From Roseovarius sp. (GTDB lineage: Bacteria; Pseudomonadota; Alphaproteobacteria; Rhodobacterales; Rhodobacteraceae), in the NCBI GenBank assembly GCA_963691795.1, contig OY829373.1:3216810-3280809 (forward strand): DNA of 64,000 nt. Reading direction: 5' to 3'. Each line of letters starts with the position of its first letter. The stretch's first letter is position 1. The notes beneath the pieces were generated by a model. The model worked only from the letters and a program-made list of their open reading frames with translations, ran no database searches and had not been told where the DNA came from. The position numbers and the translations under genes are program-made. Below, one piece after another: positions 52,312 through 58,391 of the stretch.

Positions 52312-53223
52312 CTATTCGGCAGGAATAGCGGCGGTATTGCGGTTGCGTGCCTCGTCCAGCACCAGCCATGATCCAGCCAAAATGACAATCGCCGCACCGA
52401 CATAGACGCCCGGCTCCGGCACCTCGCCAAAGACAGTAAAACCGATCAGGAGCATCCAAAGAAACTGCAAGTTCATTAAAGGCGTTACGACATAGGCCGG
52501 CAACAGGCGTAACGCGGCCACCAGTACCCAGCGGGCCCCGAACAGCACGACCGCATAGACGATCACCAACCCTAGGTCTGCCACGGACATTGGCGTGAAA
52601 ACAAACGGCAGTGCCGATGCCATAATTATCATCAATGCCAGGTTTGGATAGAACAACTGCGACAGGATATTCGCGTCCCTGACACCGATGTAGCGTGACG
52701 CCAGCATAGACACCGTACCAAGCATAACCGCTGCCATGGCCAGACCATGCCCCAGTGAGACTGAACTTAAACCGGTAGGCAAAAGGCACAGCACACCCAC
52801 CGTCCCGAACGCCAATGCCAACCAGACCTGCGGGCGTACATGTTCGCCCAGAATCGGACCAGAGAGCAGCGCCGACACAAGCGGGATCATCGCGATGAAC
52901 ACGAATACCTCGGCAAAGGGAAGCAGACGGAACGCGTAGAAAAAAGCCGCCGTGGCTGCAACAGTGGCCAGCACCCGCACCGTCATAGCCCCTGGACAGG
53001 CTGTGCGCATCCCCTGCCATCGCCCCTCACGGCGATTGGCAATAAGGCTTAGCAGCGCCACGACTCCCCCTGATATCGCATAAAGTTGGGGTGCCGCGTG
53101 GCTTGCGGAAAACAGCTTGGTGATCGCATCGGCTGAGGAAATCAACAGCGTGTAAAGCGCCGTCAGCCCAACGCCGGTCAAGCCAAGGGTGCGCAGGGCG
53201 TGGCGGTCAAACTTGCCGATCAT
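52312..53223 (-). CDS. DMT-superfamily (EamA-like) transporter, third gene of the FTSSM-repeat cassette
   Basis: About 10 hydrophobic segments in two EamA-like halves. Its ATG overlaps the stop of the 376-aa gene (ATATGATC) and is preceded by GGGAG. Confidence 0.85.
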   Translation of the reverse strand: MIGKFDRHALRTLGLTGVGLTALYTLLISSADAITKLFSASHAAPQLYAISGGVVALLSLIANRREGRWQGMRTACPGAMTVRVLATVAATAAFFYAFRLLPFAEVFVFIAMIPLVSALLSGPILGEHVRPQVWLALAFGTVGVLCLLPTGLSSVSLGHGLAMAAVMLGTVSMLASRYIGVRDANILSQLFYPNLALMIIMASALPFVFTPMSVADLGLVIVYAVVLFGARWVLVAALRLLPAYVVTPLMNLQFLWMLLIGFTVFGEVPEPGVYVGAAIVILAGSWLVLDEARNRNTAAIPAE

Positions 53224-54350
53224 ATCATATCTCCCGGCTGCACAGCGCGTGAGAAGCCACGGAAGAACGCCTCAAAATCCACCGCACCCTCGGCCGCCTC
53301 CAGCACACTGCGGGCGTCATCCGACATAGCATCGCCTACGTCATCACGCAGCTCTGCCCAGTTATCACTGCGCCGATCACCCAGCCTGTAGATGCTGTCC
53401 GACAACTCCCGTAGCGGTCCCGCCGGCGCTTGTGGGGCTGAAAAGATTACTGAACCTTCCGGCATGTCCTGCCCGAACCCCCCTGCTCCAGATACTTCCA
53501 TGGACCAGTTGAGCATCAGCCAAGGGTGATAGTCATCCTGCCGCGCCGGGCCGCTGCCCACGGAGATCACGAACCGGCGGACCTGGTCACGCAGCCAGTT
53601 TTCCCAGATGGGCGGCGGTTCGTGACCTGCGAAACGCAAGGCGATGCAGATTTCGGAGAGCAGGTCGATATTGAGTTCCAGGAAAGCCAGCGTGCCAGCA
53701 TAGAAGAGGCTGTTCAGCGTGTCTTGCTCTACCCCCGGGTCAGTGCGACCGTATTCGGAAAGATAAAAGAGGATATGGGTCAGTTCATAGGCGGCCTTCT
53801 TGTTGGGCAGCGCAAAGGTGTCGGAGCGGCTGGTAAAGGTACGCAACCGATCCTCCAAGCCCGTATCCCCGGGCAGCGGATCAACCCCGCGCCGCAGGCA
53901 TAGTCGGCGCGCCTCGGCCCGCTGCAAATCTGACAATTCTGCCCCTATAAGCCCCGTGTGGGCCACCCAGTGGGTGAGCCGCTCACCCTTGACGCCCGGC
54001 ATGCCAAGATCCTCAAGGTCCAGCGAGAGCGCGAGGAAAAACCGGTAGTATTGTGGGAAAAATCCGATCCGTGCTTCCAGATCGTCGTAAAAAACGTCGT
54101 ATACGCTTAGGCCATAGTCATCCGGCATGGCCCCTGTAGCCTCAAACACGTTTAATATTTCGGCATTTTCCTTGAGCCAAAACACATCATCGCGGCCGCG
54201 CCGTGTCTCGGCAAAGCGCTGCATGATAGCGCTTTGCCGGGACGCTTTGGTGCGTTGGCGGAACGGAGTGTTGAGGTGGACGAGAACGCCTTGCGCGCTC
54301 GCCTCGCCTGTCGCGCTATTTTCGTTCCGCCAAAGCATCCCGTGGCTCAC
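53220..54350 (-). CDS. 376-aa protein of unknown family, candidate maturase for the FTSSM-repeat peptide
   Basis: Long ORF with high third-position GC. The GTG start overlaps the stop of the repeat peptide (ATGTGAGC). There is no TM or signal peptide, no Walker A, only two Cys (so no CxxxCxxC), and possible metal-ligand motifs HWVAH, ELTH and DDYH. Confidence 0.8.
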   Translation of the reverse strand: MSHGMLWRNENSATGEASAQGVLVHLNTPFRQRTKASRQSAIMQRFAETRRGRDDVFWLKENAEILNVFEATGAMPDDYGLSVYDVFYDDLEARIGFFPQYYRFFLALSLDLEDLGMPGVKGERLTHWVAHTGLIGAELSDLQRAEARRLCLRRGVDPLPGDTGLEDRLRTFTSRSDTFALPNKKAAYELTHILFYLSEYGRTDPGVEQDTLNSLFYAGTLAFLELNIDLLSEICIALRFAGHEPPPIWENWLRDQVRRFVISVGSGPARQDDYHPWLMLNWSMEVSGAGGFGQDMPEGSVIFSAPQAPAGPLRELSDSIYRLGDRRSDNWAELRDDVGDAMSDDARSVLEAAEGAVDFEAFFRGFSRAVQPGDMI

Positions 54351-54769
54351 ATGCTTGATGTGAACATGTGGCAGCCATCGCCTTCTACCGCAGTAGCAGT
54401 CGTGGCCGGACCCATGGACGAGGTAAACGCCTCGACCGCGTCACCGTCGCGGGTCGACGAGGCCGTGACAGGGCCCATGGACGACGTAAAAAGTTCCACC
54501 GCATCACCCGCAGATGCATCGGACGTAGCCACCGGTGACATGGACGAGGTGAAAAGGCCTGTGACCTCACCCGTCGTGATGTCGCCCGCCGTTACAGGGC
54601 CCATGGACGACGTGAAAAGCTCGGTCGCTTCACCCGTAAGGCCATCACAAAACAGGGTGGGTGCCATGGACGAGGTGAACGCGCCAACCTCGGCGCCATC
54701 GTGCAGGCTGGCCTCGACTTGCGGTGTAGAGTTTTGAATAACTTCCAGTGTTTTGAGTTGTGCAGACAT
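54347..54769 (-). CDS. 140-aa repeat peptide: six 21-aa units each ending in FTSSM (candidate multi-core precursor)
   Basis: ATG 54769 lies 7 nt after GGAG. FTSSM occurs at residues 31-35, 52-56, 73-77, 94-98, 115-119 and 136-140 (the C-terminus). The motif is encoded by differing synonymous codons. There is no signal peptide. Confidence 0.8.
   Translation of the reverse strand: MSAQLKTLEVIQNSTPQVEASLHDGAEVGAFTSSMAPTLFCDGLTGEATELFTSSMGPVTAGDITTGEVTGLFTSSMSPVATSDASAGDAVELFTSSMGPVTASSTRDGDAVEAFTSSMGPATTATAVEGDGCHMFTSSM
54350..54727 (-). repeat. six tandem 63-bp coding repeats
   Basis: The + strand core CATGGACGA(G/C)GT(G/A)AA recurs at 54413, 54476, 54539, 54602 and 54665, with a diverged sixth copy CATGCTTGATGTGAA at 54350. 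The period is exactly 63 nt. Confidence 0.9.
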
Positions 54770-54858
54770 CAGTCTTCTCCGTTAGCAGCCCCCAGTTGGG
54801 CGCTATCGACGGTTACAGCTTTAAGGCGATCTGACAACTAACTTTTCTCGTTTAAGAA

Positions 54859-54957
54859 TTTTCCACAGGGTCAGAGTCGAACCTGTGTCATTTCAATTTT
54901 TTGAATTCAAATTGAGAAATCTCTGCTGCACAGTGCGAAAAAAATTTTATCCACAGG
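54859..54957. promoter_or_regulatory. AT-rich control region motifs: TTTTCCACAGG, inverted CCTGTG, TTTGAATTCAAA palindrome, TTATCCACAGG
   Basis: Read directly: 54859-54869 ttttccacagg, 54882-54887 cctgtg, 54900-54911 tttgaattcaaa, 54947-54957 ttatccacagg. Confidence 0.4.
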
Positions 54958-56021: not shown

Positions 56022-57047
56022 CTACCCCTCTAACGCCGCAATCAGACGCTGCTGGAAATACGCGACACCTTGCTCGTGGCGCGGGGATAGTGGACCGGGC
56101 CGGTACCCGCCACTTTCATAGTTTTTCTGCGTCTCCAGACAGACCTCGAAATCCTCACGGATGACAGCGAGATTGTCGGCTATCGTCTTTTCTCGCGCAG
56201 GCGCGGCTGCAACAGAAATGTCTGCGAAATAAAAGTTGTAGATCAGCTCTGTCCGGCGATGATCAATCGGATTGATGCGGGAGGTATTCATCCCGCCATT
56301 GAACAGCGATAGCGTCCAGTTGGGCCACATCCACAGCCATTTGCCTCGATAGAACAGCCCGTTCTTAGGAGGTGCCGACATGCGCACAAGGCCGTCCTGT
56401 GCCACGGTCTCGAATTGATCAAATTCGATGGCTGCGTGAAACTCGGGGTGGATGCCCGGGATGTGGTAGCCTTCCACGAAATTGTCCGTGTAGATTTTCC
56501 AGTTGGCATCAAAAACCAGCCGCTCCTCGCGCACCCATTGAAAGCTTTCGATCGGTTCATCCTCAAGCTCGGCTATCGTGTCGGCCAACTGGTCCTGTAG
56601 GCTGCACTGCGGATCAATCGCTACGAACAAAAGCCCCCGCCAGACCTCGAACGCGACCGTGTCGAGCGCCCAGTCCGCCTTCTGGAAATCCACGTCATCG
56701 CCCCACCACGGCACGTTAAGCAGCGATCCATCCTCCCCCCACACCCATTGGTGATAGGGGCACCGGATCGTGCTGCACCGTCCCGCCCCTTCGGGCAAAA
56801 GTCGCGCGCCCCGGTGTCGGCAGACATTGCGAAAGGCCCGCAGCCCATCCTTGGCACGCACGACAAAGACCTTCTGGCCGGCAATCTCGGTTGCCATGTA
56901 ATCACCGCGTTCGGCCAGGCGGGAGGCCGGGCCGATCAGCTGCCAGCTTTGCGCGAAGACGTGATGGCGGTCAGAGGCGTGAACATCGGCACTGGTATAG
57001 TGATGCGGGGCAAGATTCTGCATGGCGGGCCTTTTGTATGACAGCAT
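56022..57047 (-). CDS. Rieske (2Fe-2S) non-heme-iron oxygenase alpha subunit
   Basis: Rieske motif CRHRGARLL...CPYHQWVW. A C-terminal catalytic domain is present and no beta subunit is adjacent. An alternative start is at 57023. Confidence 0.85.
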   Translation of the reverse strand: MLSYKRPAMQNLAPHHYTSADVHASDRHHVFAQSWQLIGPASRLAERGDYMATEIAGQKVFVVRAKDGLRAFRNVCRHRGARLLPEGAGRCSTIRCPYHQWVWGEDGSLLNVPWWGDDVDFQKADWALDTVAFEVWRGLLFVAIDPQCSLQDQLADTIAELEDEPIESFQWVREERLVFDANWKIYTDNFVEGYHIPGIHPEFHAAIEFDQFETVAQDGLVRMSAPPKNGLFYRGKWLWMWPNWTLSLFNGGMNTSRINPIDHRRTELIYNFYFADISVAAAPAREKTIADNLAVIREDFEVCLETQKNYESGGYRPGPLSPRHEQGVAYFQQRLIAALEG

Positions 57048-57485
57048 ATGCGGACCGTATCATGTTACTACCGAGTGCTCTGCCATGGCAATCGGTGTGA
57101 AACCTCGCCAAAGGGCCCTTAAGCGCCAGAACGACACGCCACCTCTGTGGACTGACGCAGCACTGACAGGTTAGGTCAGGCTGCGCCAGATGGCTATCAA
57201 ACTGGTCAAAGACGGTCGGAAAGAGAAAATTCAACTTTCTATCAGGATGTTACCCTGATCCGGCCAGCCTGTACTGGCACAGTTCTACGGCAAAGCACTG
57301 GTCCGTTCGGGTGCAATCGCCAAATGCCCAAACCCGCCCCACACACAGGTCCGCGCATGGGGGACCGCAGCCAAATGTTTTACGCACGCCCCCAGCTGCC
57401 ATAAGCTGACTACAAAGCGTCCAGCCCCCGCCCCTGCCCATCGGTCAGACCCGCGCGGCGCGTATCAAGAGGGAGGAACTCAATA

Positions 57486-58391
57486 TTGTCCATCGATGCC
57501 ATTCGCACCCCTGACGACTGTTTTCTCAACCTGCCAAACTTCGACTGGCAGCCCCGGTACACGGATGACCTGCCCGGATATGAAGGGCTGCGCATGGCAA
57601 GGATCGACGAGGGCCCACAGGAGGCAGAGCAGGTGTTCCTCTGCCTACATGGGCAGCCTTCGTGGGGATTTCTTTACCGGCACATGATCCCGGTCTTCCT
57701 AGGGACGGGGGCGCGCGTGGTTGTGCCTGATCTTTTCGGTTTCGGCCGGTCAGACAAGCCGACGCGGGATAGTGACTATAGCTTCACCTTCCATCGTCAC
57801 AGCCTGATGGCGCTGATCAAACATCTTGACCTGCGCTGCATCACCCTTGTTGTTCAGGATTGGGGCGGGTTGCTGGGCCTGACCATACCGCCTGACATGC
57901 CCAAGCGGTTCGAGCGGCTTTTGGTCATGAACACGGTTCTGGGCCTGGGCGGCGGTAGCAGTGACGGTTTCGAGGCTTGGAAGACGTTCCACCGGACCCA
58001 TCCTGATTATGACATGGCGACCCTATTCCAGACCTACGTACCCGGCATGCCGGACAAGGTGGCCCACGCCTATTCTGCCCCCTTCCCCGATACCCGATAC
58101 CGCGCGGGCGCGCGCACCTTTCCTTCGCTTGTGATGACAGAGCCCCATATGGAAGGCGTCGAGGTTTCGCGCAGGGCGGCCGCTTGGTGGAAAGAGGAAT
58201 GGACTGGCGACAGCTTCATGGCAGTTGGAGAGGCAGACAAGCTGATCCCGCCGCGCCTGATGGTACGGATGCAAGACATCCTGGGCATCACCCGCCCACC
58301 CCTGATGATCCCTGATGCAGGGCACTTTGTTCAGGAAAGCCATGGTGCAGAGGTCGCGCGCGCGGCGCTCACTGCTTGGCGAACTGGTTGA
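57486..58391 (+). CDS. haloalkane dehalogenase-like alpha/beta hydrolase
   Basis: HGQPSW oxyanion region and nucleophile motif VVQDWGG, as in DhlA-type dehalogenases. TTG start after GGGAGGA. Confidence 0.82.
   Translation: MSIDAIRTPDDCFLNLPNFDWQPRYTDDLPGYEGLRMARIDEGPQEAEQVFLCLHGQPSWGFLYRHMIPVFLGTGARVVVPDLFGFGRSDKPTRDSDYSFTFHRHSLMALIKHLDLRCITLVVQDWGGLLGLTIPPDMPKRFERLLVMNTVLGLGGGSSDGFEAWKTFHRTHPDYDMATLFQTYVPGMPDKVAHAYSAPFPDTRYRAGARTFPSLVMTEPHMEGVEVSRRAAAWWKEEWTGDSFMAVGEADKLIPPRLMVRMQDILGITRPPLMIPDAGHFVQESHGAEVARAALTAWRTG

Follow-up and report, generated by a model that had tools for sequence, protein, structure and literature searches.

A multi-core repeat peptide and its DUF6902 neighbour in Roseovarius: strong candidates for a RiPP-like system not yet described

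In this article, I discuss two adjoining genes, the first of them almost always missed by annotation pipelines, in a stretch of 64,000 nucleotides (nt) from Roseovarius sp. (NCBI GenBank assembly GCA_963691795.1, contig OY829373.1, positions 3,216,810 to 3,280,809 of the forward strand), referred to below as the window and used for all positions given. The first gene encodes a peptide of 140 amino acids (aa) in which the pentapeptide FTSSM recurs six times, the second a 376-aa protein of the Pfam family DUF6902, and the pair is, judged from comparative genomics, a strong candidate for an undescribed system resembling those that make peptides that are built by the ribosome and then modified after translation (RiPPs). 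More specifically, the repeat open reading frame (ORF) would encode a multi-core precursor and the adjacent DUF6902 protein would be the dedicated maturase modifying its F-[TS]-S core, a proposal that I put slightly above even odds, at about 55%. The Roseobacter group are dominant and ecologically important marine heterotrophs whose chemical interactions with algae and microbes are intensively studied. The pair is found in hundreds of marine Rhodobacteraceae, and the cassette in at least 318 species-level genomes. DUF6902 is purely a domain of unknown function (DUF) and lacks a structural relative, and the gene for its putative substrate is essentially missing from the protein databases.

The precursor gene occupies 54347-54769 on the minus strand, its stop codon being 54347-54349. 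Translation confirms what a first, sequence-only reading of this DNA had described, namely a 14-aa N-terminal head (MSAQLKTLEVIQNS) followed by six units of exactly 21 aa, each with Pro as its second residue and each ending in an identical FTSSM. The same reading was right about the good ribosome-binding site (a Shine-Dalgarno GGAG at 54777-54780, minus strand, 7 nt 5' of the ATG at 54769), about the missing signal peptide, and about the C-terminus, which is core 6 itself, with the stop codon abutting it. All on the minus strand, the cores lie at 54665-54679 (core 1, residues 31-35), 54602-54616 (core 2, residues 52-56), 54539-54553 (core 3, residues 73-77), 54476-54490 (core 4, residues 94-98), 54413-54427 (core 5, residues 115-119) and 54350-54364 (core 6, residues 136-140, directly preceded by GDGCHM), while residues 1-30 (54680-54769, minus strand) form a leader-like region whose conserved head reads M-[ST]-A-[QL]-x-K, with S-L-H-D-G just before core 1; M1, K6, D24 and G25 of this region are nearly invariant in the alignment of precursors described below. 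A chance origin of the FTSSM repetition is excluded: when the peptide was shuffled 200,000 times with its composition preserved, no shuffle contained six copies of any pentamer (the maximum was four copies, seen once), and in the six frames of the whole window the precursor is the sole ORF in which a pentamer is repeated at least three times. A DNA repeat artefact is likewise ruled out, as Tandem Repeats Finder reported no DNA-level tandem repeat, and this, together with the low identity of the six units at the DNA level (only 41-62%), means that the periodicity is old and has been kept at the level of the protein.

The codons call for more care, and it is here that one has to ask whether the repeat ORF could be a non-coding or antisense artefact, or an unmodified structural or low-complexity protein, that adjoins DUF6902 through nothing but inherited synteny. 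The sequence-only reading had taken the synonymous codons of FTSSM (TTC/TTT, ACC/ACG/ACA, TCG/TCA and TCC/AGC, all of them as claimed) for direct evidence of selection on the amino-acid motif. Within the window that argument is weaker than it looked, because an antisense ORF of 167 aa (54234-54737, plus strand), itself carrying repeats of GPMDEV/GPMDDV, overlaps the precursor and has its third codon positions in common with it, so that most of the "synonymous" differences would likewise leave the protein of the opposite strand unchanged or change it conservatively; the only codon change within the window that clearly discriminates the two strands is the TCC-to-AGC Ser switch in unit 6. The same antisense ORF may be one reason why gene finders miss the precursor gene.

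The claim of selection itself was upheld by comparison across species. With every GTDB species represented by a single genome, a scan gave 318 DUF6902 relatives, the best 80 loci were inspected (loci are numbered with an L below), and 73 precursors, corresponding to the loci with readable upstream DNA, were catalogued from genome contigs. Among the best 80 of the 318, each locus whose upstream sequence is long enough has a same-strand repeat ORF that ends a few to about 90 nt before the DUF6902 gene, a 351-nt gap being the single exception. The expected co-occurrence of the repeat ORF with the 376-aa gene was found wherever the upstream DNA could be examined, one locus that is not syntenic with the window included. 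Across the repeats the sense frame is uninterrupted in all loci, whereas the best antisense frames are open in just 18-21 of the 73; GGGAG, GGAG or GGAGG is present at the same position before nearly all of the 73 orthologous ATGs, and the precursors have the head M-[ST]-A-[QL]-x-K...S-L-H-D-G in common. Counting the Phe of the core as position +1, the entropy at the near-invariant Ser(+3) amounts to 0.21 bit for the amino acid versus 1.76 bit for the third-position nucleotide, with all six Ser codons used, including switches between TCN and AGY, and at Gly(-6) all four codons are in use across the units. These frame and codon data settle the coding frame as the sense frame, and by this comparative evidence the repeat ORF is a real gene, predicted to be translated, with purifying selection on its motif, all of which argues against an artefact.

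The precursors differ in size but not in plan. They are 99-328 aa long with 4-16 cores each (median 7), and their cores follow one another at periods of 21 aa (313 cases), 20 aa (121) or 8 aa (45). The consensus of 569 units reads A-P-x5-[DE]-A-x-x-G(91%)-[DE]-[AG]-[VT]-[EQ]-[ML]-F(95%)-[TS]-S(96%)-[GS]-[LSM], and the protein C-terminus is exactly a core end in 68 of the 73 precursors. Eleven clade-specific majority cores of the general form F-[TS]-S-[SG]-x were recognised (FTSSM, FTSSL, FTTSL, FSSGS, FSSGA, FSSGL, FSSCS, FTSGL, FTSGS, FTSAA and FCSAS), and of 566 cores, 95.4% have exactly the sequence that predominates in the genome concerned. Homologues at the 73 loci therefore conserve both the motif and a period of 20-21 aa, in keeping with the sequence-only reading, with cores that are lineage-specific. 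A scan of metagenomes added further loci with a precursor and DUF6902, and with them the cores FTSGA, FTTSM, FSTGL, FTTSC, FTTGS and VSSTC. In some precursors, 8-aa mini-units (VQMFTSGL, VELFSSCS, VALFSSAS) directly follow a full core with no spacer between them and equal the stretch from -3 to +5 in a normal unit (L040, L042, L051, L052, L058, L069, L071, L074, L075, L079 (Shimia-type), L031 and L092), which hints at the minimal peptide that might be recognised or released.

Two further features of the precursors can be recorded here. The final unit of the window's peptide, and no other, has a Cys at position -3 (C133, in GDGCHMFTSSM), and the Roseovarius-type clade conserves the pattern GDGC[HE][MI]F, the Cys being present also in the last unit of L001-L011, L014, L019, L020, L023 and L035; in several other clades a Cys sits instead just before the first core. 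On a truncated contig (L096, 3-155), the ORF 5' of a DUF6902-EamA pair consists of at least six copies of an 8-aa repeat, LMPASN(T/S)(D/E), with Pro in place of the usual aromatic residue and Ser kept, and it may represent a very divergent core type.

How thoroughly this gene has been overlooked is plain from the databases. A profile built from 12 diverse precursors matched 16 proteins among 5.8 billion clusters, just one of them an NCBI "hypothetical protein", compared with more than 1,400 clusters of DUF6902, and the window's own peptide is missing from a collection of 15 billion proteins. The precursor gene is essentially unannotated. That gene finders almost never call it is one of the points that can be made for an artefact, along with the third codon positions that it has in common with the antisense ORF and the fact that most loci occupy the same chromosomal slot.

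This last point bears on whether peptide and enzyme belong together at all. In the window the surrounding genes are housekeeping ones (Xth, ErpA, a dGTPase, CcmF and DksA), and most loci have the common order DksA, FAD-monooxygenase, Xth(-), peptide, DUF6902, EamA, ErpA(-), dGTPase; the shared slot implies that the cassette is vertically inherited, and co-occurrence within it is therefore partly a matter of phylogenetic relatedness. However, the pairing also holds in non-syntenic contexts and in distant lineages. In L092/L093 (GC content 0.67, beside gyrB), the trio of peptide (six FSSAS plus YSSAS), DUF6902 and EamA lies in a different genomic context. Divergent DUF6902 genes from organisms of lower GC content (20-34% identity; L082-L084, L086-L091, L099, L107 and L110) each have a same-strand, single-copy ORF of 61-91 aa directly upstream, and several of these ORFs carry a single [LM]-[FY]-[TS]-G motif. 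In one type a Sec-like signal peptide is combined with one copy of [ED]-[LM]-Y-[TSA]-G close to the C-terminus, a motif which recalls the E-M-F-[TS]-S-G of Rhodobacteraceae; in a second type a helical-looking leader of the kind "ELLKLFSEAGV" goes with (D/S)xKYxFxxK at the C-terminus, present in L090 as two tandem copies. Conversely, L085 (GCA_041224595.1, JBGFGN010000157.1, 3672-5005) keeps the slot, with DksA-FADmono-Xth on one side and ErpA-dGTPase on the other, but has neither a repeat ORF nor EamA, and its DUF6902 protein, 25% identical, has lost Y188, T191, H192, E233, H275 and W282, so that this locus appears to be a decaying remnant in which the peptide and the conserved residues of the enzyme were lost together. 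The different context of L092/L093, the divergent upstream ORFs and the joint loss in L085 indicate that the link between the peptide and DUF6902 goes beyond synteny, and with the open sense frame, the conserved ATG, Shine-Dalgarno sequence and head, and selection at the amino-acid level, they leave the idea of an artefact or a mere syntenic neighbour largely refuted and very improbable.

What kind of protein, then, is the partner? The putative maturase gene (53220-54350, minus strand) starts with a GTG at 54350 that overlaps the precursor stop and encodes 376 aa, whereas the public gene call begins instead at an ATG at 54338 (372 aa; P0005 is 100% identical). The protein is a full-length match to Pfam DUF6902 (PF21843; E = 2e-143, 478 bits versus a cut-off of 27, residues 23-369) and a partial match to DUF6895 (PF21836; E = 4e-18, 66 bits versus a cut-off of 23.8, residues 86-247), and is by these profile matches a member of DUF6902, a sister family of DUF6895, rather than of DUF6895. 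No other Pfam or NCBIfam family matched, even at E <= 10, which leaves DUF6895 as its sole detectable relative, and DUF6895 is a lasso-peptide epimerase according to the title of Shi et al. (ACS Catal 2026, 16:1757), as cited in PMC13352647 (ref 371). The DUF6902 family is small, with 203 representatives at E <= 1e-3 among 1.84 billion proteins. Down to about 20% identity its members retain K60, E64, R103, E146, Y188, T191, H192, D229, E233, H275 and W282, with E138, S140 and D141 near-invariant, and the region shared with DUF6895 (86-247) holds most of the family-wide invariant residues. Such a density of invariant polar residues is a pattern typical of an active site and is what would be expected of an enzyme; catalysis is accordingly a prediction. 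An AlphaFold2 model built from 18 homologues (mean predicted local distance difference test score 86, predicted template modelling score 0.85) is confident and all-alpha, with about 21 helices. Foldseek found no significant match for it in the PDB (best E = 0.3, all TM-scores < 0.3) or in BFVD, and a profile search of PDB sequences with DUF6902 found none either.

Two labels that might be attached to this protein were tried and rejected. The name "iron-containing redox enzyme", borne by one UniRef entry and suggesting a heme-oxygenase-like di-iron oxidase, has no Pfam or NCBIfam match at E <= 10 and no Foldseek match behind it, and an anti-phage defence system was set aside since PADLOC returned no match for the DUF6902 protein or for the peptide. 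As to distribution, a contig from a record titled Granulosicoccus sp., a metagenome-assembled genome (L028), has the full Rhodobacteraceae synteny and housekeeping proteins 73-85% identical to those of the window; it is probably mis-binned and hence no evidence of the cassette in Gammaproteobacteria.

The all-alpha model raises an alternative in which DUF6902 would not be an enzyme at all but a helical-repeat binder, such as a chaperone, a receptor or an antitoxin-like neutraliser, that holds on to each repeat of an unmodified and intrinsically disordered repeat protein. Its best Foldseek matches, although not significant, are helical-repeat peptide binders of the ARM/HEAT/TPR type and PrgX, no cofactor-binding or catalytic Pfam domain was found in it, and some of its divergent relatives are located in variable regions, with a retron-type reverse transcriptase and a resolvase, or Fic and a Schlafen-like helicase, as neighbours. 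However, with every TM-score below 0.3 there is no real match to a TPR or ARM fold; no HTH, TPR or DNA-binding Pfam domain was found; the absence of any PADLOC match does not favour a role of this kind; thirteen charged or polar residues stay invariant or nearly so down to 20% identity and are lost jointly with the peptide gene; and the related DUF6895 family is reported, in the title cited in PMC13352647, to be catalytic. I therefore regard a non-enzymatic binder as rather unlikely. A similar comparison can be made with RRNPP signalling (Rap-Phr, PrgX, AimR-AimP), which also places a short peptide with a lineage-diversified motif beside an all-helical protein; those systems belong to Firmicutes and their phages, whereas here the protein has no TPR or HTH, the Rhodobacteraceae precursors have no signal peptide, and Foldseek TM-scores stay below 0.3.

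Returning to the proposal of a precursor and its maturase, the general definition of a RiPP includes a ribosomal precursor with a leader and cores, and an ATG, a Shine-Dalgarno sequence, a head and 4-16 cores are what was found across the 73 loci. The likeness is greatest to the multi-core precursors (PatE, the dikaritin precursor UstA, and multi-core graspetides and triceptides), which are also small ORFs with many short cores between spacers, a variable copy number (here 4-16), a leader-like head and a putative modifying enzyme next door. Comparative genomics thus supports the multi-core, RiPP-like architecture put forward in the sequence-only reading, but the resemblance to PatE and dikaritin precursors that it had drawn is one of analogy and not of membership, as the class-defining enzymes of the multi-core classes are all absent from the window's cassette, which has DUF6902 only, has no dedicated protease and is inherited vertically at a fixed slot rather than as a mobile cluster. 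Unlike the cyanobactins, there are no PatA/PatG subtilisin-like proteases (peptidase S8) and no YcaO, the neighbours being DUF6902, EamA, ErpA, dGTPase and Xth. Ustiloxin-type dikaritins need UstYa/DUF3328, Kex2 KR sites and a signal peptide for the endoplasmic reticulum, whereas here the host is bacterial, K and R make up 2.7% of precursor residues, KR sites are missing between the cores and the head lacks hydrophobic character. Neither the ATP-grasp ligase of graspetides nor the radical SAM/SPASM enzyme of triceptides occurs near the precursor, as judged from Pfam scans of the neighbours and from conserved synteny. The lasso-peptide epimerase DUF6895 is alike in sequence (66 bits) and in its reported ribosomal-peptide substrate, as far as the cited title goes, but no lasso B protease or C cyclase is among the conserved neighbours here and the substrate would be a linear repeat peptide. 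Literature searches turned up nothing relevant on a described class with an FTSSM-type core, on the function of DUF6902 or on Roseobacter RiPPs of this type; the sequence-only reading, too, had not recognised FTSSM as belonging to a described class.

What I infer, from the catalytic step and the kind of modification to cleavage, export and the role in biology, is the following. Each unit would consist of a drifting spacer rich in S, T, A and D and a conserved block, G-[DE]-x-[VT]-[EQ]-[ML]-F-[TS]-S-[SG]-x; a cytoplasmic DUF6902 would recognise the leader and/or this block and modify the F-[TS]-S core. As to the chemistry, L-to-D epimerisation of one residue in the core is put first because the sole precedent in the superfamily is the DUF6895 peptide epimerase, although taken alone it is doubtful; other Ser/Thr-directed chemistry is possible. 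Short products ending at core position +5, possibly of no more than 5-8 residues and perhaps corresponding to the 8-residue block [VT]-[EQ]-[ML]-F-[TS]-S-x-x, would then be released, as suggested by proteins that end exactly at +5 and by mini-units that run from -3 to +5. With no protease encoded, the spacers would have to be trimmed by general, non-dedicated peptidases, from which D-residues could shield the cores. The product would be exported by EamA where this is present, and might act as a lineage-specific signal or another small bioactive peptide, since a core that is uniform within a genome and divergent between clades resembles the diversification of signals and pherotypes.

The transporter deserves a closer look, as the sequence-only reading had counted it in a cassette of 52312-54769. 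Of that claim, the pairing of the peptide with DUF6902 holds, but EamA does not stand as an integral part. Its gene (52312-53223, minus strand; Pfam EamA, of the drug/metabolite transporter, DMT, type), which overlaps the DUF6902 stop by 4 nt and whose product has weak matches to amino-acid exporters, is found downstream at most loci, and at the non-syntenic L092 as well; it is absent from the FTT-type sub-clade (cores FTTSM, FTTSC and FSTGL) and from a few other loci, in which peptide and enzyme are kept and ErpA directly follows DUF6902 (L095, L097, L098, L100, L105, L108, L111-L113 and L115; also L045 and L048). Its absence from a whole sub-clade implies that the minimal module is the peptide plus DUF6902, with EamA a likely, predicted accessory exporter.

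Several of these observations weigh against a precursor with a dedicated maturase. Specialised-metabolite clusters are not usually inherited vertically, as this cassette is, in one fixed place on the chromosome with housekeeping genes on either side; Pfam scanning and synteny revealed no protease gene in the cassette or its conserved neighbourhood; the loss of EamA leaves export unexplained in the sub-clade concerned; the Sec-type signal peptide on some of the single-core relatives fits awkwardly with a cytoplasmic maturase; and the nearest structural neighbours, however insignificant, were peptide binders.

The first of these points also invites the question whether the repeat peptide is not the product at all but a scaffold sacrificed in the making of a cofactor or a small molecule that is not a peptide, the F-[TS]-S part being excised or rebuilt, as in pyrroloquinoline quinone (PQQ) from PqqA, mycofactocin from MftA or pearlin-type 3-thiaglutamate, with DUF6902 performing the key step and many cores raising the yield. 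Those pathways are alike in having a ribosomal peptide substrate with few conserved residues, chromosomal vertical inheritance and a transporter of the small-molecule type, and the cassette's core-genome-like inheritance at a fixed slot does resemble that of cofactor genes more than that of antibiotics, the DMT/EamA transporter with its weak similarity to amino-acid exporters is of a kind that usually carries small metabolites, and a strict requirement is limited to three or four positions (F, T/S and S). However, PQQ, mycofactocin and pearlin pathways are single-core and involve several enzymes (radical SAM enzymes, peptidases, ligases), with radical SAM or peptide aminoacyl-tRNA ligases (PEARLs) as a hallmark, whereas the window's cassette is multi-core with a single enzyme, DUF6902. 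Within lineages, conservation extends to positions +4 and +5 and to the block from -3 to -1, and +5 is exactly where the protein ends, which suggests that the whole short peptide matters, and a family absent from most bacteria (again the 203 representatives among 1.84 billion proteins) would not serve a general cofactor. A scaffold is in my view unlikely.

Should the maturase proposal prove true, it would establish a new logic of RiPP precursor plus enzyme, in which one enzyme serves many cores with no dedicated protease, provide a function for Pfam DUF6902 and a second class of substrate for the DUF6895 superfamily, and demonstrate that multi-core precursors can be vertically inherited traits of the core genome. 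The most ambitious version, which I hold only tentatively and at somewhat less than even odds, is that this two-gene module is a new RiPP class whose maturase, of an unseen fold, introduces a mass-neutral or otherwise unusual modification (e.g. D-residues) into a short F-[TS]-S core, yielding lineage-specific signals or bioactive agents of about 5-8 residues in much of the marine Roseobacter group, hidden so far because gene callers skip the precursor.

Scans for promoters and terminators did no better than on shuffled controls, and around the cassette Rfam reported no structured RNA or riboswitch, the one match being a chance miRNA (E = 0.77). Alignment and pattern searching of the intergenic region between xth and the precursor (54859-54955, minus strand) revealed two conserved DnaA-box-like elements of the TGTGGATAA type, at 54859-54867 and 54947-54955 (minus strand), which are copies of CTGTGGATAA(C) and, against the DnaA-box consensus TTATCCACA, are one perfect and the other off by a single mismatch. 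In 8 related loci of the Roseovarius type both copies keep their position, alongside a T-run and GATTGATTC, and the region may carry the regulation of the cassette, perhaps as a DnaA-regulated divergent promoter. The elements were also considered as part of oriC, but the GC skew keeps the same sign throughout the window, so that this is not obviously an origin. Further out, a Rieske oxygenase gene (56022-57047, minus strand) and an alpha/beta hydrolase gene (57486-58391, plus strand) occupy 56022-58391, between xth and the FAD monooxygenase gene, and since Xth and the FAD monooxygenase are directly adjacent in the related loci inspected (e.g. L001-L006), this is apparently a 2.4-kb insertion specific to the genome of the window.

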